Notes under the pieces: model-generated | The model's input: the letters and a program-made list of their open reading frames with translations, nothing else | Database searches by the model: none | Told to the model about the DNA's origin: nothing | Shown here: positions 2,699 through 63,507 of the stretch, piece by piece | Numbering within the stretch: the stretch's first letter is position 1 | How the letters are laid out: each line of letters begins with the position of its first letter | Program-made: the position numbers and the translations under genes | Sequence record: OR757454.1 | Reading direction: 5' to 3' (one strand) | From: Escherichia phage BYEP02 | DNA length: 64,000 nucleotides

Positions 2699-5600
2699 TT
2701 ATGCTAAACGAACGATATAGTTAAAAGCAATGTTTTTAACCGTGTTTTCTGTATTACCTGTACTATTTACAGTGATAGTATGTCCGTGCGAACCAATAGC
2801 TACCGTGTGGGTATGAGCACCAATACCGACCGAATGGCTATGGGCACCGATACCTACAGTATGCGCGTGGTTACCCGTAGAGCTAGTAGTACCAGACCAA
2901 GTATGGGTATGGTTACCTTCTGTTGACGACTTTGCAATATATTGGCTTGTACCAGGCACAACACCGTTGCTTAGGCCAAAACCAACAACCAGGGTTCCGC
3001 TAATTCGAGTAGATCCATTAGGATATATTCCTGTGGGTTGATTATTAGTACCCCTTGGACCGGTTTGTGAGTGTTGGTGCGCACCAGCGGAACTAGTATT
3101 ACCACTCACTGTATGGCTATGGTTACCAGTGGTATTACTGGTCTTAGTACCATAATCAAAGCTTGAAGTCGTTTTGCTACCGTAATCAAAACTAGAAGTG
3201 GTCTTAGTACCCAAATCTGTGCTTGATGCACTTGCACTATGGCTATGTGACTTAACACCGTCTGCTTCTGTACTCAATACAGCACGCCCGGATGGTTTAC
3301 CCTTGATAGTTTGACCACGCATATCAGGCAGAGTGCCGGAAGGATACACCGCAGCTAACTTAGGATACAAGTCAGCATCAAATGTTTGACCTTCCATTAT
3401 GGCATAACCTTCAGGAGGTGTATCAGTAGGCCAAGGAATCGGAGCACCAATAGGATAACTTGAGACAATATCCGTCTTAAGGTTATTTATTGTGGTATTC
3501 AAGTTAGCAAAATTACCAGAACCACCTGTGATGTTACCGTCAGTACCAATTCGAATATTATTAATTTTAAGAGGCTTAGTAATATCGACTGTATCAGCAT
3601 TCAATGCAATGCCGTGGGAGTAAGTGTAATTATGCATACGAACAACATTACCACCATCGCCAATACCTAAATACCATTTTGTTACATCTGCTTTACGTCC
3701 TTGAATAAAGTTAGATGATGCTTGAGATGATGCGTTGAGCACAATACCGTCAGAATCCATGTTAACACGAAGTCTAACATCAGTCTGAACGAATTTTGAT
3801 ACATTATCAATAGTAAGCAAATTTTTTCCAGCTTGTGTATGATTACCAATCATAACACTGCCATTTGCAAGATTGATGGTAAATGGGCGTAAATTACTTA
3901 TTCCACCACTTTTACCAGCGTCTTTAAGAGTAGGAATAATATAAAAGCTAGTTTCTGAACGACGGAAAATAGCGCCGTATTCAGCATTCCAAATTCTCAA
4001 CGCATCTGCTGTTCCACCGAATTTAGCCTGACCATTTACAGATAATCCATTATTTGCAACTAAACTTGATTCAGTAACAATAGAACCAGATGATGTAATA
4101 CCACCAGAAGTTAATAAACCACCATTAACTCGAAATTGAATAGGTCCGACGGTAGAACCTGATCCGGGAGCAACTCGTTGAGAATAAAAATGGTAACCTT
4201 GTCCATCTGATACTTGAAAAACTGTTTCACGAGCACGATTGCCAGATGCATTAAAGGCATTACCCCATGCTTTGATAGATAGATAACTTTTATTCTGACC
4301 TGGGCGAGTACCGGCGGCCCACAATATAGTTTTAGTGCCATCTGTTGTTGTAGGAGCGTCAAGTTGAATACCATCGGGTCTAGCACCAGTAAGAACTAAT
4401 CTATAGTTTTAGTGCCATCTGTTGTTGTAGGAGCGTCAAGTTGAATACCGTCGGGTCTAGCACCAGTAAGAACTAATCCGTTATCAAATTTAATTCTTTG
4501 TATTGAAGATACTGTTCCGTCGGCATAAAACTGTACGTTATTAGAGCCAGTTACCAATTTCAAAATACCCGGGTTAACTTCCATGCCTTCTTGAGTATTA
4601 ATATTAGTTTTGCCTTTACCACGGAAATAGTGGTTCATTTTTCCGCCTGAGTTATAGCCAATATGTGTCTGACCGTCTCCAGCAGTGTTTTCATCAGCTT
4701 GTGTTTGAACTGATAAAAATGCAGCGTTCGTTCCAGGCATAATCCATGTTGTACCTTGGTCTTCTGAGCGTCCAAATATTGCTTTACGAGTACTACGGAA
4801 ACTATCAGGTGTGATAGATGCCAAAGATAAACCAGAACCAACGAAATCAAATACACCAGTTTTTCTATAAACTAGACCAGTTCCATTATCGCCTAAAGCA
4901 AGAAATATATTTCCTAGTGCCCCAGCATTTCCATAATCGCTTGACGGAAACCCTTGCGTCACAGTACCAATGGCCAAGCTATTGCGAATAATCATTCTAC
5001 CGTCGTTACGAATACCATATAGTTTAAATAACGGTGTATTACCAGTCCACCATGACATTTCATCTGCCAGTCCAGTCTGAGCTGTACAAATTTCATGGTA
5101 AATAGTTCCACCTGATTTAGCACGAACTTTACGAAGATAGTTTACGCCATTTGTTTCACCTGTTCCAGGATAAACATACTGAACTAATGACTGTGAATCA
5201 TATTGTCCAAAGGCTTTAGAATCGTGATTAATTAAATTAACACTAATAGTTGGTGTACTAATAGAAGTTAAAGCAGTTAATTTGCGTGCCTGGAAGATAC
5301 CACCATCAGTAGAAATGAAATGAAATTCTGAATTTTGAGCTCCCGCAGCGGTTCCTTGACGAACACGCATTGTAATTACGCCTTCATTTTCAGACTGCGG
5401 TTTTGAATATAAAACGCCACGTTCTGAGCCATTTGTATTTTCAAACCAAAGATGGGCATTTGCAGTATCGTTTGTTGCTCTTGCATAAAATGAACCCTGT
5501 GTAGATCTGAAAACTTTTGCTGTTACGCCATCAGTAGAACCAATAGGTCCATTTACAGTCATTCCACCCGTTTGTACATAATCGCCATTTAATCTCAAAA

Positions 5601-6473: not shown

Positions 6474-6496
6474 TGTATGCCCCTTTATTTTAATAG

Positions 6497-6504
6497 TATT
6501 TATA
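6497..6504 (-). promoter_or_regulatory. late promoter motif TATAAATA upstream of gene 36 (second copy at 6574-6581 inside duplication)
   Basis: TATTTATA on plus strand 24 nt upstream of gene 36 start. Confidence 0.5.
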
Positions 6505-6512
6505 AAGAAAAA

Positions 6513-6530
6513 GGGAGCCCGAAGGCTCCC
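6513..6530 (-). terminator. terminator hairpin after gene 35 (second, mutated copy at 6590-6607)
   Basis: GGGAGCCCGAAGGCTCCC followed on minus strand by T-run. Confidence 0.5.
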
Positions 6531-6612
6531 TCAATTTATACTTCTCTAAATTCTTGCCCCTTTATTTTAATAGTATTTATAAAGAAAAAGGGAACCCGAA
6601 GGCTCCCTCAAT

Positions 6613-7808
6613 TTATACTTCTCTAAATTCTTGCCCAAACACTTTACCAGTTTTAGACGATGCTTGTGTAGGAAGTACCATTATATCCGGAGGTGAAGCA
6701 GATTCGCAGATATAATTAACACGAATACCATTGACGCCAAATTCAGCAGGTTTTGAAATGCCGCCATTTCTTGATACTTCAGAAAAGCTTAAATTTCTCA
6801 TGCCACCTTGGCCAGCTTTAGCAGTTCTCTGTGCATATATCGTAAATCCTACTGCGTTTTCTGGAACAACTACATAATCTTCCTTTAATTCCCATGACCC
6901 AGCTTGCCCAGTAAATTCAGCTTGTGTCGAGGAAATATATCCATTTGATGCATTATAAAAACGGATAGATATATTTGTAGTTCCAAGAGCAAGTAAATCA
7001 GCATCGGCGTATAGCTGTGTTTTAAGATAAAGAACATCACCAGGAATTAAATTATAATCAGAGAGTTTACTTATTGCAGCCGAAGTTGGTAGACGCGCAA
7101 TTTCGTTATTAGTTCCACCAACCGCTGACATAAATTGCTCAACGCTTTCATACGTTCTTCTTGGAAAGCCGGTAGCTCCGACGTCTTCTAAACTGTCAAA
7201 TACAACATCTAAAATAGTTTGATAATCATCTGTGCTTTTTCTATTACTCAGTTTAACATGCTCTAATGCAATAGCTCTTTTAGAAGAAGTATAAAAAGCA
7301 GCATATGATACGTCGAATCTTGACAGTACAGAGTCAGATGGAAAAGCAGACGTTCCAGCGGTTCTTAGCCAAGATACTACCTCAGGAGGAAAATTAACCT
7401 TTCCACTGGTTAATATAGCAACAAGTCTGTTGTTTGAAAAAGAATTCATGAAACTAACAAAAGCAGCTGATGTAGTATCATTTGAAGTCGAAAAAGCATA
7501 TGACTTACTATCAACTAATGCTCCTGTAGAAGGGTCAAAAACTCTTAAATGAAGTCCTGCGCTAAATGTTTGACTTCCAACAGGATTATCCTGAAATTTA
7601 ACGTAGAAGGGTCAAAAACTCTTAAATGAAGTCCTGCGCTAAATGTTTGACTTCCAACAGGATTATCCTGAAATTTAACGTATGGTCCTTCTGCAGTAGA
7701 AAGCGGGCAAGAACCCGCTATACTTATTTTATATCTTACTGAATTGCTTTCCGATAAAAATGGCGTTTGGACATATCCTTGTCCAAACTCTGCCATAAAT
7801 TTTTCCAT
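6613..7808 (-). CDS. 35: gp35 long tail fibre hinge, frame broken by 77-bp duplication (7526-7679)
   Basis: MEKFMAEFGQGYVQTPFLSES... N-term and ...GQEFREV C-term; 372 aa after removing one repeat copy. Confidence 0.8.
7526..7679. repeat. 77-bp direct tandem duplication inside gene 35
   Basis: copies 7526-7602 and 7603-7679; identical. Confidence 0.9.
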
Positions 7809-41422: not shown

Positions 41423-43272
41423 TTAATTAACTCCAGTCGCATCAAATACACCAGGAGCAGTTGTGCTTGTGACAGGTGTCATATTATGAACGACAGTATT
41501 TTTCTTAATAACATTATTAGTATTATTGATTGAAGGAGATGCTTGCTGAACAGGAGCTTGCTGTGCTTTGTTCTTTTCAATAACCTGGACCTGTTTCGCT
41601 TCTGGCGATTTAGCAGAAGTTTCAGGTTTGGCATTAGGCTGATTTTTCTTGAGCTCTTGATAAGTAGCATCAATTTTAGAAAATCTAGCAGCAAGTTCTT
41701 TTTTAACTGCCGGTGAATTGTTTAAATCCGGGTCATCCATCCGTTTTTTAAGGTCTTCATAGGCAGATTCAACAGATTTAACCGTTGAGTCTTTACTCAT
41801 ATCAGCTGAATCAGCATATTTTTCAAAACGAATCATCGCGGCACGTGCTTCATTAGCCTTCATTAAAGCATTTTTTCTTTCTTCAGGTGAAAGCTGCTTT
41901 AATTTTTCTTCTTCTGCTGCACGTTCTTCGTCGGTAGTTAGTGCTTCTTTATTATCAACACCGCGAATCCAATTAGATGCACGAGTTTTCCAATTAGCAA
42001 TTTTATCTAATCCTTTTGCTATCGGACCAAGGTCTCCGTTCATTCGTTTATCTTGATAATTTGCAACTTTTTCTTGGTCTTCTTTATTGAGAGATGCTCC
42101 AGTAGAATTTTGGAAATTTTCCAATGCTCTTCCTTCTACTTCATCAGCAGTATCCTTCATACCAGGAATGACTCGAAGAATTGCTGCAGATAATTTAGCC
42201 ATACCTAATTGAATAAGCTCTCCTAAATTAAAAAGAACACTTCCAAGTCCTTCTATGATAGCTGTTGTCAATCCACCCCAATCTCCCGCTTCCCAAAGTT
42301 GTTTAATTTTATCAATAGAATCAAAGATGCTCTGTAATAAAGGACCCCACCACCCCAATCTCCCGCTTCCCAAAGTTGTTTAATTTTATCAATAGAATCA
42401 AAGATGCTCTGTAATAAAGGACCCCATGTTCCGGTTTCGCTAGAGAATTTAGTAAAATCAGTACTATATAAATCCCAGGCTTTTGAAAATTTATCTGACC
42501 AGTATTTAAAATGAACCATCAACAGGTCTATTCCAACAACAACAGCCAATATCATTGCAGTCATTTTAGCAGCTTCAATAGCAGCACTAACGGTATACTT
42601 AAATAGCATGCTTGATATTTTATCAGTAATTGAAATAGATTTCTTAAATCCAAAATCAACTGTCTTTGTTAATTTATCTAAAGCTTGAGATAATTTTAAG
42701 TTAAATGCTTCTTTTTTCTGTTTTTCTTCTGGTGATTCTTGTTTGGGTTCAACTGGTTGAGGGGTAGGGAAAAAATCAGCGTCAGGATCATTATTAACTG
42801 CTTCGGGAGCTGGTAATAAAGGACCCACAGATTCGGCAGTATCATCCTCAACGACTTTAACAGGAATAGCGCTTTCAACCGTGGCTAAACTAGTTCCCGT
42901 CTGTTGAATTCCAGCTGTCTGAATTTTTTGCTCTAGTAAACTTGTTAATTTATCTAATTTGCTTCCGAGTGATTCACCGATTTCTTTATTAATATTGTTG
43001 CCAATTTCGACAGTTTCAGCAATTAACTCAGAACCAGCAGTAGTATCACTCACTGCGCTTTCTACGTTATCAATTGCTCCAATTATTTCATTCGATTTTT
43101 CTTCGACAGTTTGAGCTATTAATTCAGAAGCAGCTTGAGCATCATCCAATTTCGTAGAAATGTCATTAAGCCCAGATAAAGTATTAGAAGCGGATTTAGC
43201 CGCTTCCTGTGTTGGTTTATTATCTGAAATAACTTTTCTACGCATCGTTTGCATTTCTTGTGGCTTTTTCAT
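41423..43272 (-). CDS. 29: gp29 baseplate hub / tail length determinator, frame broken by 77-bp duplication (42273-42426)
   Basis: 1850 nt minus 77 = 590 aa + stop as T4 gp29. Confidence 0.8.
42273..42426. repeat. 77-bp direct tandem duplication inside gene 29
   Basis: copies 42273-42349 and 42350-42426; identical. Confidence 0.9.
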
Positions 43273-43802: not shown

Positions 43803-44999
43803 TTTTAACCTTAACTGGGTCTATTGTTTCCAGTTTCGTTGCATTAGTGAACATATATAGATGAGTTACTGAATTATTATTGGATAATTCATGGATAACT
43901 TCATCAACGTAAAATTCTGTTTTAAATTGGTTTTTACTATCATTAAAAATAATTTTAACGATAATTCATGGATAACTTCATCAACGTAAAATTCTGTTTT
44001 AAATTGGTTTTTACTATCATTAAAAATAATTTTAACACCAGGAGTCAAGTTAAAATTACCGACAGTAGAACATTTAGCATAGCCATCATATTGCGCCATA
44101 GTTTGAAGACGAATAGCTTCTTCATATCCATTCCTATAAGTCATTTCAGAATAAGCACCTGACCTTGACACTACAATAGAGTTTTCTCCCTTTCCTGTAG
44201 TAATCATTGGCAATGAAGAATCTAAAAATGAATGAGCATAGATAGTAGCGTTTTTCATTGGGTCACGTTTGTGAGGATTCGATTTAGTCAACCAAACGAA
44301 ATCATATGCTAATGGATATTTTAATTCTTGGATGAATTGACCTATTAAAGATGGCTCACCGACAATCATTGGATACGGTTCTTGATTTATCATCATATCA
44401 TAGTCCATCATGTTAACTCCCATGATGTCTTGCCACACAAATACAAATTTGTCACTTCCTACAGCTAGAGCAACTTCTCTAACATACGACAAATAGTTTT
44501 CAAATGTGCTAGTCCATGGAATATCAGGAACATAAGCATTTATAGCATTTATTGCTGGAGTTAATAATGTACGGTCTTGATAAATGACGCCAAGCATTTC
44601 TTTTATAGATTCACCTGCATCAGGGAAAAATGGTCTACCAAATTTAAGATTTTCTATAGAATGAATAGTTCCCAATTCAATAGCAATGATGTTATCGCCT
44701 TTTGAATCGACTGACACGGAAAAATGCTTACATCCATAAATTCGTGTTTTAACATTATTAATATCATTTGCATTAGCTACAGAAATCTGAATTATTTCAT
44801 TTCCATCCATTTTTGTATGGATGTTTTTAGAATCATAAAACTGCAGCATTCCTTCATTTCGGCCATAAAGAGAATCCCGCATAGTTAATGTGGTAATAGT
44901 AGCAGCTAATTCAACAAATCTATTATTACTCCAAGCGTCGTAGCTATCAAATAATTTAACGCTGAGATTTGGATATCCGGGGCGTTGCAACATACTCAT
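43747..44999 (-). CDS. 27: gp27 baseplate hub subunit, frame broken by 77-bp duplication (43883-44036)
   Basis: [21 protein letters not shown]...; after removing one copy the frame ends at TAA 43747-43749 giving 391 aa as T4 gp27. Confidence 0.8.
43883..44036. repeat. 77-bp direct tandem duplication inside gene 27
   Basis: copies 43883-43959 and 43960-44036; identical. Confidence 0.9.
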
Positions 45000-45748
45000 T
45001 ATTGTTTATCCTTCTCAATCAGTTTTAATACGAATCCGCGCTCAGCAGGAATCATTTTCATTATTGAATTTAAGCTATAATTACTTTTTACGAGTGTGTG
45101 ATTAATTTGATAAAAAGTAAATATCTCATCTGGGTTAACTAATAGCTTAAACACGTCTACTATATCAGTGTATTTTTTAATGTACTTATTACAGCATGAC
45201 ATATGTAGAGTTAAATTAATAGGATTCATTGCATCGAGAATTTTTTCTAATGTTTCTATCTCGATGGCGTCAACGAGTTCTATTTGACTGGACTCGCTAA
45301 TTTCCTTCCAATCATACCAAGTTTCATCTACTTGAACAGAATGAATATTTTCAGTAATCATCTTTGCTTTATTTTCATAAAACTCAGAAGGAAACTTTAA
45401 TTTAATTTTAACATTAGCTACATCAAAAACAGGTTCCTTTAATTCTTTTTGATATATTTCAAATGGAACTGTCTTTTCTTTTTTACATTTTGGACATACG
45501 AATGTGACTGGTACTTTTGTTTTACCTATCGACCCTACAAATACCTGCAAAAATATAAATGGTTGCCAAGTCTTCGGATAGTCTCCAAAATAATCATCAA
45601 TTAAATCAGTAATTATTTCTTTTTGTTCTTGTGGTGACCGATGTTCTATATCGTTTCGAACTAACAAAAAATCTCGATAATCTTCTACCGTAAATGGTTT
45701 AAAACGATGAACACCATCTGGTAATTTACAACGAATAATGTTTGCCAT
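44999..45748 (-). CDS. 51: gp51 baseplate hub assembly catalyst
   Basis: 249 aa as T4 gp51. Confidence 0.8.
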
Positions 45749-45765
45749 AGATGCTCCTTTTATTC

Positions 45766-45777
45766 TATTTATAAATA
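45766..45777. promoter_or_regulatory. overlapping divergent late promoter motifs between genes 51 (minus) and 26 (plus)
   Basis: TATTTATAAATA contains TATAAATA on both strands. Confidence 0.45.
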
Positions 45778-45798
45778 TGATAAATAAAGGAGCTAAAT

Positions 45799-46425
45799 AT
45801 GTATGAATACAAATTTGATGTGAGAGTTGGTTCTAAAATAATCAATTGTCGCGCATTCACGCTTAAAGAATATCTAGAACTTATTACTGCCAAAAATAAT
45901 GGTTCTGTAGAAGTAATTGTTAAAAAGCTAATCAAAGACTGCACAAATGCAAAAGATTTAAACCGCCAAGAATCAGAACTATTATTGATTCATTTATGGG
46001 CACATTCTCTCGGCGAAGTTAATCACGAAAACTCCTGGAAGTGCACCTGTGGAACTGAAATACCAACCCATATAAATCTATTACATACACAAATAGATGC
46101 ACCAGAAGACCTCTGGTATACACTGGGTGACATTAAAATTAAATTCCGATACCCTAAAATTTTTGATGATAAAAATATAGCCCACATGATAGTATCATGC
46201 ATAGAAACGATTCATGCTAACGGGGAAAGCATTCCAGTTGAAGACTTAAATGAAAAGGAACTAGAAGATTTATATTCTATCATCACAGAGTCAGATATTG
46301 TAGCTATAAAAGATATGCTTTTAAAACCTACCGTTTATTTGGCTGTTCCAATTAAGTGTCCAGAGTGTGGAAAAACCCATGCTCACGTAATAAGAGGCCT
46401 CAAAGAGTTCTTTGAGTTACTATAA
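45799..46425 (+). CDS. 26: gp26 baseplate hub subunit
   Basis: 208 aa [25 protein letters not shown]... Confidence 0.8.
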
Positions 46426-47303: not shown

Positions 47304-47527
47304 TGAGATATAGCATTGATGATGCTTTTAATTATGAAGAAGAATTTGAAACGGAAATTCAATTCTTAATGAAAAAGCATAATCTTAAGCGTCAGGATAT
47401 TCGTATCCTGGCCGATCACCCGTGTGGTGAAGATGTCCTTTATATTAAAGGAAAATTTGCCGGATATCTTGATGAATATTTTTATTCTAAAGATATGGGC
47501 ATTGATATGCATATGAGAGTTGTATAA
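47303..47527 (+). CDS. hypothetical small protein (74 aa)
   Basis: ORF track; 3' end and downstream late promoter lie inside duplicated unit 47462-47615. Confidence 0.45.
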   Translation: MRYSIDDAFNYEEEFETEIQFLMKKHNLKRQDIRILADHPCGEDVLYIKGKFAGYLDEYFYSKDMGIDMHMRVV

Positions 47528-47615
47528 ATAGATATATAGGATATCTTGATGAATATTTTTATTCTAAAGATATGGGCATTGATATGCATATGAGAGTTGT
47601 ATAAATAGATATATA
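47462..47615. repeat. 77-bp direct tandem duplication spanning small ORF 3' end and a TATAAATA late-promoter motif
   Basis: copies 47462-47538 and 47539-47615; identical. Confidence 0.9.
47523..47530 (+). promoter_or_regulatory. late promoter motif TATAAATA (duplicated copy at 47600-47607)
   Basis: upstream of ORF 47633. Confidence 0.4.
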
Positions 47616-47855: not shown

Positions 47856-48163
47856 TTAAAAGCTTTCTTCTACTTCATCGTCTGAATCTTCTAATTCAGC
47901 TCTTTTTCCTGCCAAAGCATCTCTCACAGAGATGTCATCAGTATCTTTTAATTCAGTTTCTTTGACTCTTTTCTTGTAATAAGCTTCAAGTTCTTCTAAA
48001 CCTTCTAATGTTTGACAAGAGGCAATTTTACCCATAAATTCATCAATAGAAGCTTCATAAAGAAATTGTTTAAATTACCTTCTAATGTTTGACAAGAGGC
48101 AATTTTACCCATAAATTCATCAATAGAAGCTTCATAAAGAAATTGTTTAAATCCTAGTAACAT
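47856..48163 (-). CDS. UvsW.1-like small protein, frame broken by 77-bp duplication (48000-48153)
   Basis: MLLGFKQFLYEASIDEFMGKIASCQTLEGL...; 76 aa after removing one repeat copy. Confidence 0.5.
48000..48153. repeat. 77-bp direct tandem duplication inside uvsW.1-like ORF
   Basis: copies 48000-48076 and 48077-48153; 1 mismatch. Confidence 0.9.
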
Positions 48164-48188: not shown

Positions 48189-49854
48189 TTATAAATTAAC
48201 TGTTTTCATTACGTAATTAAATTTTTCATCTGCGTAGCGCTGAATACGATCAATGCCGTGTTTTAAAAGATAGTTCAAATGAACATATTTCTTTTTCGTA
48301 TTAGCAGATTTTGGCTTAACACCACAATCATCTATGAGGTCCCAGACTGTTGCGACTGTTTTAGAACCATGCTTACGTAATACACGACCGATTGTTTGTA
48401 ATACAATGATTTTTGATTTAACGCCGTGCGCTATGTCTTAGAACCATGCTTACGTAATACACGACCGATTGTTTGTAATACAATGATTTTTGATTTAACA
48501 CCGTGCGCTAAAACAACATGATGCAGATTTTTAACTGAAATACCAGTAGAAAATACACCATAACTCGCTACTATAATTATTCCTTTACCATTTTCAGCTA
48601 AGGTTTTCATTACGTTGCGGGTTTCGGTATCAACTTCCCCTGATACGTAATAAACTTTATCGTATTCATTTTTAATTAAATCGAAAATAGCTTTACCATG
48701 CGATACATGTTTAAACATGACAAAAGCGTTTTCATCTTTTTGTCATTTTTAATTAAATCGAAAATAGCTTTACCATGCGATACATGTTTAAACATGACAA
48801 AAGCGTTTTCATCTTTTTGTGCAAGCTTAATAGCTAATTTAGCGATCCATTTATTTCTTTTACTGAGCCCAGTAATAATTTTTATTTCTTCTTGGTAAGT
48901 TTTTCCCTTTAATTTAGTAGTGAACTCATCGGGATAGCGAAGAAAAATACTATTAATTTTTAACTCAGTTACTTGTCCATCTTCCATTAATTTAGAGGTC
49001 GTTACTGGCTTAAATATTTCACCAAACATTCCAACATACTGCATGATATTGGCTTTGCCGTCACGTAATGAACCAGACAAACCAAATTTAAACATGCAGT
49101 TATTTAAACCTGATATGATAGATGAAATACTTTTTCCTGTAGCAAGATGGCATTCATCATTCATCATCATTCCAAACTGTGAGAACCATTCTTTCGGTTG
49201 TTTAACTACAGTTTGCCATGTACCAACGACGACTGGTGCATCATTTTTATATTTATCATCTTTTGATGCTCCGCCACCAATTTTCTTTATCATTGCATGA
49301 CTGAATAAACGATAGTCAACAAAGTCATCAGCCATCTGAGTTGTCAGAGCAGTTGTTGGAACAATGATAAGAATTTTACCTTCATAATTTTCCAAATAAT
49401 ATCGCGCAAGCAAAGCTTGAATTAAAGATTTACCAGCAGATGTTGGAAGATTAAGAATTCTACGACGATTAACTAATCCTTCGAACACTGCATCTTTTTG
49501 ATACCAGTGCGGTTCAATTCTTTTATTTCCTGAATAGATTTCTAATTTAGAAAGCCATTCATCAAAATCTTTTCTTGATAATTCTTCTTTTTCGTTAATT
49601 TGTGGGTCAATCCAGGCTTTATAGCCAAAGTTATCACAGAACTTTTTAATTTGCCCGACTAAGCCGAATGGAAGAAGACGATTATAATCTAAAAGACGGA
49701 TTCGTCCATCCCAGTGGCCATATCTGTACTTCGGATTAAAACGATACCCATCAGCTTCAAAGCTAAAGAAATCACGGAGTTCATGAAATGTACTTTCTTC
49801 GCAATCAATTCTCACGTGACTAAAATCATAAAAATGTACTTTAATGTCAGTCAT
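48189..49854 (-). CDS. uvsW: UvsW DNA/RNA helicase, frame broken by two 77-bp duplications
   Basis: MTDIKVHFYDFSHVRIDCEESTFHEL...; 1666 nt minus 154 = 503 aa + stop. Confidence 0.85.
48361..48514. repeat. 77-bp direct tandem duplication inside uvsW (divergent copies)
   Basis: copies 48361-48437 and 48438-48514; about 4 mismatches. Confidence 0.85.
48666..48819. repeat. 77-bp direct tandem duplication inside uvsW
   Basis: copies 48666-48742 and 48743-48819; identical. Confidence 0.9.
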
Positions 49855-50671: not shown

Positions 50672-52167
50672 ATGACTTTTACAGTTGATATAACTCCTAA
50701 AACACCTACTGGAGTTATAGATGAGACTAAGCAGTTTACTGCTACGCCCAGTGGTCAAACTGGAGATGGACCTATTACCTATGCTTGGACTGTTGATGAT
50801 GCACCGCAGGAAGAAACGTCTGCAACTTTTAGTTATGTACTAAAAGGTCCTGCTGGACAAAAGACTATTAAGGTAGTTGCAACAAATCCAGTTCCTGATT
50901 CTGAAGCTGAAACAGCTGAAATTAGTACAACTATCACAGTTCAAAATAAGACACAAACAACTACTTTAGCTGTAACTCCTGGTAGCCCTGATGCTGGAGT
51001 GATTGGAACTCCAATTGAATTTACCGCTGCCTTAGCTTCACAGCCATCAGGTGCAAACGCTACATATCAATGGTACGTTGACGGTTCTCCTGTGGGCGAA
51101 GCAACTGGCACTACATTCAATTACACTCCTGACGCAAGCGGAGTTAAAACAATTAAGTGTGTAGCTCAAGTAACCGCGACAGATTATGATGCAAAGGAAG
51201 TTACTTCTAATGAAGTGTCACTGACTGTTAATAAGAAAACACAGACAACTACGTTAGCCGTAACTCCTGCTAATCCTCCAGCAGGAGTTATTGGAACCCC
51301 AGTTCAATTTACTGCTACCTTGGCTTCACAGCCACCAGGAGCGTCTGCTACGTATCAGTGGTATGTTGACGGTTCTCTGGTCGATGGAGAAACTACTACT
51401 ACATTTAACTATACTCCTACCACAGTTGGAGCTAAAACAGTTAAGTGTGTAGCGCAAGTAACTGCAGAAAATTACAATGAAAAGGAAGTTACTTCTAATG
51501 AAGTATCATTGACTGTTAATAAGAAAACAATGAATCCACGGGTTACATTGACTCCTCCTTCTATTAACGTTCAGCAAGATGCTTCGGCTACATTTACTGC
51601 TAATGTTACGGATGCTCCAGAAGAAGCACAAATCGAATATTCATGGAAGAAAGATTCTTCTCCAGTAGAAGGGTCAACTAATGTATACACTGTTGATACA
51701 TCATCTATTGGAAGTCAAACTATTGAAGTTACTGCAACTATTACTGCAACTGATTACGATAGCAAAACTATTACAGCAGAAGGTCAAGTTCAGGTAACTG
51801 ATAAAGTTGCTCCGGAACCAGAAGGTGAATTACCTTATGTTCATCCTCTTCCACATCGCACTTCAGCTTATATCTTGATAAAGTTGCTCCAGAACCAGAA
51901 GGTGAATTGCCTTATGTTCATCCTCTTCCACATCGCACTTCAGCTTACATCTGGTGCGGTTGGTGGGTTATGGATGAAATCCAAAAAATGACCGAAGAAG
52001 GTAAAGATTGGAAAACTGAAGATCCAGATAGTAAGTACTACTTGCATCGTTACACTCTTCAGAAGATGATGAAAGACTATCCAGAAGTTGATGTCCAAGA
52101 ATCGCGTAATGGATACATCATTCATAAAACTGCTTTAGAAACTGGTATCATCTATACCTATCCATAA
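50672..52167 (+). CDS. hoc: Hoc outer capsid decoration protein with four tandem Ig-like domains, frame broken by 77-bp duplication (51799-51952)
   Basis: MTFTVDITPKTPTGVIDETKQFTATPSG...; ORF pieces 50672..51991 and 51907..52167 join to 472 aa after removing one repeat copy. Confidence 0.85.
50946..51527 (+). repeat. intragenic tandem repeat of about 290 bp encoding Ig-like domains 2 and 3 of Hoc
   Basis: two in-frame units starting near 50946 and 51231, roughly 85 percent identical by eye (TQTTTLAVTPGSPDAGVIGTP... vs TQTTTLAVTPANPPAGVIGTP...). Confidence 0.7.
51799..51952. repeat. 77-bp direct tandem duplication inside hoc
   Basis: copies 51799-51875 and 51876-51952; 3 mismatches. Confidence 0.9.
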
Positions 52168-61373: not shown

Positions 61374-63507
61374 TTAACCTGCAAGACCAGTTAACTCGTC
61401 GAAATCTGCACCAGTAGCAGTTGCGACGAAATTAAGTTGGATATAATTTATACTTCTAGCCGGTTGGATGTAGAATGTTGCAACAAACTCATTTCTATCA
61501 ATTACTGACGGAGTGTTATTTGTTGTATCGCAAACTACACGATATTCATAAATTCCACCGAGAGCTTTAATTCCCTGTAAGTATTGGGCAGTTTCTGTGC
61601 GGAACGATGAACGGGTAAACGCGTTGTTTAATTCGAACAAACGATATTTTGAACTACGTCCGATATTCGTTTTCAACATATTAAACAGACGACGAACGTT
61701 AATACGATCAAATGGAGAAGGAACAGAAGTAGCTGTTTTATCACCATACAATACGTAACCATCACCACCTGTACCGGTTACCGGGTTGATAGCTTCTTGG
61801 TATAAACGGTCGCGCTGAGCCTGGCGAGTTTCAATAGCAAGTTTAATAACGTTAAGAATCTGACCACGATTATAACCAGCTGGAGACATCCAAGTCTGAG
61901 ATACGTTATCAGTTCTTGCGCATAAACCAGCAATATCAGCTGCTAATGGAACCCAGCGATTGACATCATTATATTTGTCATACTGATATTTGTAGTTACC
62001 ATCAATTGCTGCATAGGTTGAACTGATATTAAAGTTATTATCAGTGTATGAACCTGTTGCGGTTCTCCAATTGACTAAGTTATCAACAGCGCGAGTTACA
62101 GGAATTCCAACTACAGTTTCGCGCGGTGGTGAGCACAATACTAAGCAATCCTGGCGAGCATCCCCGATTGAAACGACGTGTTTTTGGACAGTAGATGCTG
62201 TTTCTAAAGATTCACCGGCACAAGAACCCGCAATAAACAACTGAACGTCAACAGATTCACGGTCAGCAAAGAAGTCCCAGGCTTCCATTAAATCTCCTGC
62301 TGTTACTTCAGCATTTGATGATAATCCACCAGACAGAGTTAAAATTCCAGAGAAGCCTTCTGGCCAGTTTTGTGCAGTTGCAAAAATATATTCTGAACCA
62401 CCTTTTGCGAAAAAGTCATCGATATAGATGTTACTATCGTAAATATCTTTTTCACCGCGCTTTGTTGAAAGAACAACGCTTTGAACAATAGCATCATTAC
62501 GACGAACTATAATAGCGTACTGTGAATCAGTTTGTGGTCCATATCCAAACACAGTTTTAGCAGTAGATGCACGAGTACCACCGCCTGGATAAATTGGGAG
62601 TAATGCAGAAGCACCTTTTGCATAGTCAGCTTTAGATACTATTTCAATTTCAATTTTATCGCCTAATTCGCCTGGATAAAGCGCTACTACTCCTGGAATT
62701 CCGTATTTTTCGAGATTTGCTTGAAAGCCAACCTCTGTCATAGCAGCTTCAGCATTTTCAATTTCAGCTAATAAAATACCAGAATCAGTAATAATTTTTC
62801 CAAGAGTTATTACTGCAGCTAAACCAGAGCATTTTCAATTTCAGCTAATAAAATACCAGAATCAGTAATAATTTTTCCAAGAGTTATTACTGCAGCTAAA
62901 CCAGAGGAAGATGAAGAAATTTCCGCAGTCCAGTTAGAACCTAATTCCGGATATTCACCGACTTCTTTAGCTTTAGCGATAATTTTTGCAGTAGGAATAT
63001 TAATTTTCTTAATTTTTCCATCTACGTCTACTTCAGTAATTTTACCTTCAGTTTCAATAGCATCTGAAACATATTTGACCGTGATTTTATCTCCAACTGC
63101 GTAGTTACTACCTGGGGTAGAAATTGTGTATTCAATATTACCGGCAATCGGAGATGAGTTTTTAGCGGTATCTCTATCGACAGCACGCACAACTCGCAAA
63201 TCATTTCCATATTGTAAGAAATTCATTGCAGACATAAAATAGTCAGCAGTTTCAGCTGTAGGTTGACCAAAAGTATTAACTAAATCTACTTCATTTGTAA
63301 CCTGTTTGATCTGAAAAGCAGGACCCCACTGGAATTTACCGGCCAAAGCTGCTGTACCAGTAGAGTTATTAACCACGGTGCTTTGAACTGAAAAGCAGGA
63401 CCCCACTGGAATTTACCGGCCAAAGCTGCTGTACCAGTAGAGTTATTAACCACGGTGCTTTGAACCGTAGTTTCTTTGAGCTCAATGCCCGGAGATAATA
63501 AAGTCAT
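61374..63507 (-). CDS. 18: gp18 tail sheath protein, frame broken by two 77-bp duplications
   Basis: MTLLSPGIELKETTVQSTVVNNSTGTAALAGKF...; 2134 nt minus 154 = 659 aa + stop. Confidence 0.85.
62751..62904. repeat. 77-bp direct tandem duplication inside gene 18
   Basis: copies 62751-62827 and 62828-62904; identical. Confidence 0.9.
63311..63464. repeat. 77-bp direct tandem duplication inside gene 18
   Basis: copies 63311-63387 and 63388-63464; identical. Confidence 0.9.

Follow-up and report, generated by a model that had tools for sequence, protein, structure and literature searches.

The question raised by this locus is whether a single 12-bp palindrome, lying in the short spacer between genes 51 and 26, can be two late promoters at once, each directing transcription away from the other. 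It was addressed in a 64,000-nucleotide stretch of the genome of Escherichia phage BYEP02 (OR757454.1), which is called the window hereafter and to which all positions refer unless stated otherwise. The 12-mer, TATTTATAAATA, is perfectly palindromic, i.e. its own reverse complement, and contains on each strand a copy of the T4 late-promoter consensus, TATAAATA, the two copies sharing the central TATA (4 bp, 45770-45773). Because the box of the - strand lies on the left and that of the + strand on the right, the two are back-to-back and point apart, within a spacer of 50 bp (45749-45798; 78% A+T) that separates the divergent genes 51 (-) and 26 (+). The initial annotation had claimed a late-promoter consensus on both strands and a back-to-back placement between these two genes, both of which are confirmed; the gene names that it gave are also correct, the flanking ORFs being gp51 and gp26 of a Tequatrovirus and the spacer being identical to that of T4. 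The coordinates of all these features are collected in the table.

The answer for which we argue here, with high confidence, is that the site is a bidirectional T4 late promoter, in which two consensus gp55-dependent promoters stand back-to-back and share their upstream 4 bp. T4 late promoters are characterized, among other things, by an 8-bp box with at most one deviation from the consensus, by an AT-rich segment directly downstream of it with no conserved -35 element, and by a suitably oriented position a short way upstream of a late gene. At 51/26, the consensus is perfect on both strands, the box is followed by the five nucleotides TGATA (+ strand) or GAATA (- strand), four-fifths A/T in either case, with no conserved -35, and each box lies just upstream of a correctly oriented late gene, the distance from the end of the box to the ATG being 17 nt for gene 51 and 21 nt for gene 26.

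Features of the gene 51-gene 26 region and related sequence features (window positions unless a phage or other sequence is named)
Feature	Position	Strand	Remarks
Gene 51	44999..45748	-	Baseplate hub assembly catalyst, 249 aa; heads leftward late operon
Predicted gene 51 late start (A)	45760	-	Placed by the -13 to -6 rule; 12-nt leader AAAGGAGCAUCU before AUG
12-bp palindrome TATTTATAAATA	45766..45777	.	Two overlapping late-promoter boxes; unique in the window and in the whole T4 genome
Late promoter box TATAAATA	45766..45773	-	-13 at 45773, -6 at 45766; gene 51 and downstream 27-28-29-48-54
Late promoter box TATAAATA	45770..45777	+	-13 to -6; gene 26 and, by read-through, gene 25, probably uvsY
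One-mismatch box GATAAATA	45779..45786	+	Possible secondary gene 26 promoter, activity doubtful; M77695.1 781-788
Predicted gene 26 late start (A)	45783	+	Placed by the -13 to -6 rule; 16-nt leader, SD AAGGAG 45787-45792
Gene 26	45799..46425	+	Baseplate hub subunit, 208 aa; heads rightward late unit, then gene 25
One-mismatch box TATGAATA	45802..45809	+	In codons 2-4 of gene 26, activity doubtful; M77695.1 804-811
77-bp duplications, examples	4325-4478, 6478-6636, 42273-42426, 43883-44036, 47462-47615, 48000-48152, 48357-48510, 48666-48820, 63305-63465		
Spacers with variant palindrome TATTTAAATA	Aeromonas phage 25, L014 1141-1188; avDM9-HANS, L017 1140-1182		

The presence of the 12-bp palindrome at 51/26 is not due to chance. 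Its single copy in the window compares with 0.043 copies expected under a dinucleotide model, and among composition-matched shuffles of the spacer a fraction of only 3.8e-4 hold the 12-mer and 6.6e-4 hold boxes on both strands, while at least one TATAAATA box is found in 4% of them. The box itself is over-represented in the window, where it occurs 22 times against an expected 8.3 +/- 3.2, a count that none of 100 shuffles reached, although two of these 22 copies are artefactual duplicates so that the unique boxes truly number 20. Counting all 22, 13 lie at most 60 nt upstream of a start codon on the same strand and 14 are wholly non-coding, in a window of which approximately 12% is non-coding. 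The whole genome of T4 has a single copy of the 12-mer (AF158101 116450-116461) and 32 perfect TATAAATA boxes. Since 32 perfect-consensus sites are likewise included in a curated compilation of some 50 late promoters of T4 (Geiduschek and Kassavetis, PMC2988020), both boxes of 51/26 are very probably on that list. The same review cautions that activity has not been proven for every listed site and that primer extension does not tell initiation apart from RNA processing. The 32 boxes of T4 are unevenly spread, with only one in the first 45 kb, which is an early-gene region, whereas the three remaining chunks have 11, 14 and 6; the chance level, scaled from the window shuffles, is roughly six per 45 kb, which suggests that the box is avoided in the early regions of T4.

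Scarlato et al. reportedly described in 1989 (Virology 171:475) overlapping promoters that direct divergent transcription of this baseplate cluster. The 51/26 divergent late promoter pair is a textbook element, annotated in T4 since 1991. A tblastn search with gp26 retrieved M77695.1, a 2.8-kb T4 GenBank deposit of that year entitled 'base plate protein (25 and 26) and DNA repair protein (uvsY)', a title that fits the subject of Gruidl et al. 1991, Virology 184:359 (citation given in PMC2988022). In this record, a TATA_box for 'protein 51' is marked at 768-774 and another for 'protein 26' at 772-779, which with an offset of 44,998 correspond to positions 45766-45772 and 45770-45777 of the window, respectively; two further TATA_box features are assigned to 'protein 26' (781-788 and 804-811). 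No other small T4 deposits that include gene 51 came to light, and no genome-wide data set of T4 transcription start sites was found in the literature searched.

The phage studied here is a close relative of T4. A stretch of 1.6 kb around the site gave matches to 501 phage records, the best of which were phiC600P9 (99.8%) and RB3 (99.4%), with T4 at 98.9%, and the T4 reference and phiC600P9 have the same gene order (27, 51, 26, 25, uvsY, uvsY.-1 and uvsY.-2). The spacer with its flanks is identical to T4 (AF158101 116429-116478) in all 109 shared alignment columns. The element is thus the P51/P26 pair of T4 (AF158101 116450-116461), with the same genes, orientation and boxes and an identical 50-bp spacer, in a relative that is roughly 99% identical; the site itself shows no difference from T4, while the genome around it is closest to phiC600P9 and RB3 rather than to T4. 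Time-resolved dual RNA-seq combined with proteomics in T4 has placed genes 25, 26, 51, 27, 28 and 29 in the class 'late-RNA_late-Protein', whereas uvsY and uvsY.-1, which lie further downstream, have early RNA (PMC9697503, Supplementary Tables S2 and S4). That both genes flanking the site are late-only is what would be expected if late promoters alone serve genes 51 and 26.

When the gene 26 region was compared with that of 14 more distant phages, the divergent 51/26 arrangement was found in 12 of them, with spacers of 43-70 bp, the exceptions being Aeh1 and cyanophage S-WAM1, in which gene 51 is not adjacent and a + strand TATAAATA is nevertheless still present upstream of gene 26. The 12-mer is invariant in ten genera, the window's own included (Tequatro-, Mosig-, Karam-, Moon-, Jiaoda-, Marfa-, Dhaka-, Gapriver-, Muldoon- and Lazarusvirus), and the identity of gp26 to that of the window falls to about 39-41% among its carriers. 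Across these ten genera, all 12 columns of the palindrome are invariant, versus none of the 62 other columns of the spacer alignment, and regions upstream of the box are not conserved. From box to ATG there are 15-24 nt towards gene 51 and 16-21 nt towards gene 26, with a single case of 33 nt, in Acinetobacter phage KARL-1. The outer halves of the palindrome belong to one box each (TATT, 45766-45769, and AATA, 45774-45777), and the invariance of both halves while the flanks drift requires selection on the boxes of both strands, a pattern of sequence conservation which argues that both promoters are used. Together with the TATA boxes of M77695.1 and the late classes of the two genes, the conserved 12-mer supports the further proposal of the initial annotation that the boxes are placed to drive gene 51 leftward and gene 26 rightward.

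The exact arrangement is not universal, as is clear from two variants. In Krischvirus KFS-EC only the gene 51-side box is present (TATTTATAAAATA) and the + strand box has been lost. In two Aeromonas phages the 12-mer is replaced by a shorter palindrome of 10 bp, TATTTAAATA, which contains a one-mismatch box, TTTAAATA, on each strand, with an overlap of 6 bp; TATTTAAATA possibly serves as a bidirectional late promoter of a variant type, in which position -12 is a T.

How would two promoters sharing 4 bp operate? The late box spans -13 to -6 (PMC1524935; PMC2988020) and is read by gp55 as unwound non-template strand, with the bases at -12, -9 and -8 flipped out, while gp33 touches the duplex further upstream and the ring of gp45 surrounds that duplex at the upstream end of the complex (PMC7892883). 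The primary transcript of a T4 late promoter has its 5' end about 6 nt downstream of the box and depends on gene 55 and on replication. Late in infection, the gp45 sliding clamp would bring the E. coli RNA polymerase core, with the sigma-like gp55 and the co-activator gp33, along the DNA to the site. On the + strand, gp55 would read the box at 45770-45777 as non-template and the DNA would open rightward, with transcription starting near 45783, while on the - strand the same machinery would read the box from 45773 to 45766, open the DNA leftward and start near 45760, so that the two predicted starts are 23 bp apart. The -12 adenines that each promoter would flip out belong to adjacent base pairs, 45771 (+) and 45772 (-), from which the two bubbles would open in opposite directions. 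Since each complex would have as its start region the duplex that gp33 and gp45 hold upstream in the opposite complex, there would be room for a single polymerase at a time, and by analogy with the structures solved on a different promoter, P23, the two complexes probably exclude each other. The polarity of the transcription that is activated is set by the orientation of the clamp, i.e. by which strand has the nick or primer end (PMC2988020), and the same P23-based reasoning suggests that the clamp, by the orientation in which it arrives, probably determines the direction of firing at 51/26. On a coordinate estimate, the window corresponds to approximately 99-161 kb of T4, which would take in gene 33 (T4 149193-149531) and neither gene 55 nor gene 45; the genes for gp55, gp33 and gp45 are all expected in this phage because its closest relatives are complete Tequatrovirus genomes.

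Three other readings of the spacer have to be weighed against the bidirectional promoter. A very improbable one is that only one box works, the other arising from the self-complementary TATA and the AT-rich spacer, and that the second gene is served from GATAAATA or TATGAATA or by read-through. These are two one-mismatch boxes just downstream of the palindrome that were missing from the initial annotation. The composition of the spacer (78% A+T, with 4% of shuffles holding at least one box), the retention of the gene 51-side box alone in Krischvirus and the two extra gene 26 boxes marked in the T4 record M77695.1 are all in line with this reading, as is the caution, expressed in a review, that not all listed late sites are of proven activity (PMC2988020). 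However, TATT and AATA alike are kept without change in the ten genera, unlike the flanks, and there is no other consensus box upstream of genes 51 and 26, both of which head late-only operons. The candidates for serving the second gene fare no better, since one-mismatch boxes occur in the window at chance frequency (196 found versus 183 expected), GATAAATA showed no conservation outside Tequatrovirus in the spacer comparison, and TATGAATA showed none among the phages compared; moreover, a start driven by GATAAATA, 6 nt downstream of it, would land inside the Shine-Dalgarno sequence. Because of their chance frequency and lack of conservation, the activity of both is doubtful, and they were rejected as supported promoters.

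The two remaining readings assign the symmetry of the spacer to something other than a pair of promoters. A reading in which a dimeric protein that binds DNA, such as the T4 dsDNA-binding protein DsbA or an as yet unknown regulator, uses the palindrome chiefly as its operator, promoter activity being secondary, seems extremely improbable. Perfect 12-bp palindromes are typical of the binding sites of dimeric proteins, and DsbA is described in a review as binding, with low affinity, A/T-rich sites that overlap two late promoters; yet the palindrome is forced by two TATAAATA boxes that overlap at a self-complementary TATA, which leaves no extra symmetry to explain and makes the operator unnecessary. 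The flanks show no symmetry about the same centre (the Shine-Dalgarno arms are centred 2 bp away), dsbA is non-essential and the affinity of its product is micromolar according to the same review, and the T4 annotation has no such operator. Those Shine-Dalgarno arms underlie the other reading, for which we see hardly more of a case, in which the spacer forms an RNA hairpin by pairing of GCUCCUUU (45753-45760) with AAAGGAGC (45787-45794) and hides the ribosome-binding site of gene 26 in early read-through transcripts, the late promoter in the loop freeing that site as in the T4 lysozyme gene e. There is thus a precedent (PMC3014915), and the spacer shared by the window and T4 does fold better than its shuffles (-11.8 kcal/mol and z = -3.2 as RNA; z = -3.3 as DNA). 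The stem, however, consists of just two opposed Shine-Dalgarno sequences, GCTCCTTT and AAAGGAGC, folding across 13 phages is not consistently above that of shuffles (z from -3.2 to +0.4), and the RNA of gene 26 is late only by RNA-seq, which implies little early read-through to silence. Such a hairpin would in any event add to the promoter reading rather than replace it. As a conserved element of the spacer, whether in RNA or in DNA, the hairpin was rejected, being significant in Tequatrovirus and Mosigvirus only. Neither a sigma-70 promoter nor an intrinsic terminator was found overlapping the site, the count of promoter-like sequences being that expected from shuffles.

The bidirectional late promoter can be set against two kinds of divergent promoters. 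The other divergent late spacer of T4 is the 47-bp one between genes 4 and 53 (AF158101 77338-77384; L019 32438-32484), which lies outside the window and in which two opposed TATAAATA boxes likewise stand between divergent late structural genes. There, the + strand box lies to the left of the - strand box, so that the two face each other at a distance of 7 bp without overlapping, and the predicted transcripts would cross, their 5' ends overlapping by a few bases, whereas the 51/26 boxes stand back-to-back with 4 bp in common, a layout that is unique to this locus in T4. Outside the late system, the 51/26 pair resembles in general concept the bidirectional sigma-70 promoters, whose overlapping symmetric -10 elements can be read on both strands and are flanked by divergent starts (Warman et al., bioRxiv 10.1101/2020.01.31.928960). 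They are defined by an overlap of the elements on opposite strands and by divergent starts 7-29 bp apart, with 18 bp as the commonest spacing for sigma-70 and 23 bp among the other enriched ones (Warman et al.). The elements at 51/26 overlap by 4 bp, and 23 bp is also the spacing predicted for their starts. The 51/26 pair differs from the sigma-70 pairs in using the phage-encoded gp55 as sigma factor, in having an 8-mer box with no -35 and in being activated by a sliding clamp.

The finding, which confirms that a standard Tequatrovirus has its baseplate-hub genes under the classical divergent late pair, has little import beyond annotation. The comparative addition is modest, namely that no block of the 51-26 spacer other than the 12-bp palindrome stays invariant in all ten of the T4-like genera, while the 4/53 spacer of T4 meets the same problem by a different, crossing geometry. 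One can speculate that the 4-bp overlap is a toggle, which only a single late complex fits at a time and in which the clamp would activate only the promoter that matches its orientation, so that the direction of the replication forks passing this locus close to oriF, or the choice of the strand that is nicked, would set the ratio of 51-27-28-29-48-54 to 26-25 transcripts. We consider this unlikely, and if true it would couple the stoichiometry of hub proteins to the geometry of replication. The locus could also offer a clean, natural system in which to study how the orientation of the clamp selects one of two opposed late promoters.

Tandem duplications of exactly 77 bp (2.0-2.1 copies, 92-100% identity) are scattered throughout the window at 31 sites, none of which touches the 51-26 spacer. 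They are almost certainly an artefact of assembly rather than biology, with a pattern that looks like assembly-graph segments joined without trimming an overlap of k = 77, and the one site that was checked directly, inside gene 27, is an exact extra copy relative to phiC600P9. Gene 27 (43866-44999) encodes 377 aa with an aberrant C-terminus, versus 391 aa in T4 and phiC600P9, and gene 29 (41423-43272) and uvsW (48431-49854) are each apparently split into two ORFs. Since duplications of this length, which is not divisible by 3, occur in all three regions, the disruptions are probably artefactual, the direct check having been made for gene 27 only. Two pairs of TATAAATA boxes exactly 77 bp apart and with identical flanks, 47523-47530/47600-47607 (+) and 6497-6504/6574-6581 (-), are copies produced by such a duplication, and it is one of these repeats that duplicates the late promoter of uvsY.-2; the gap between uvsY.-1 and uvsY.-2 is 105 bp in the window versus 26-28 bp in T4 and phiC600P9. 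A further repeat, at 50951-51529, consists of a 288-bp unit present twice with 80% identity, in frame (96 codons) within an ORF of 439 aa (50672-51991). Unlike the 77-bp repeats, it is a real feature, and by synteny with T4 it probably corresponds to the Ig-like domains that are repeated in hoc, the gene for head decoration.
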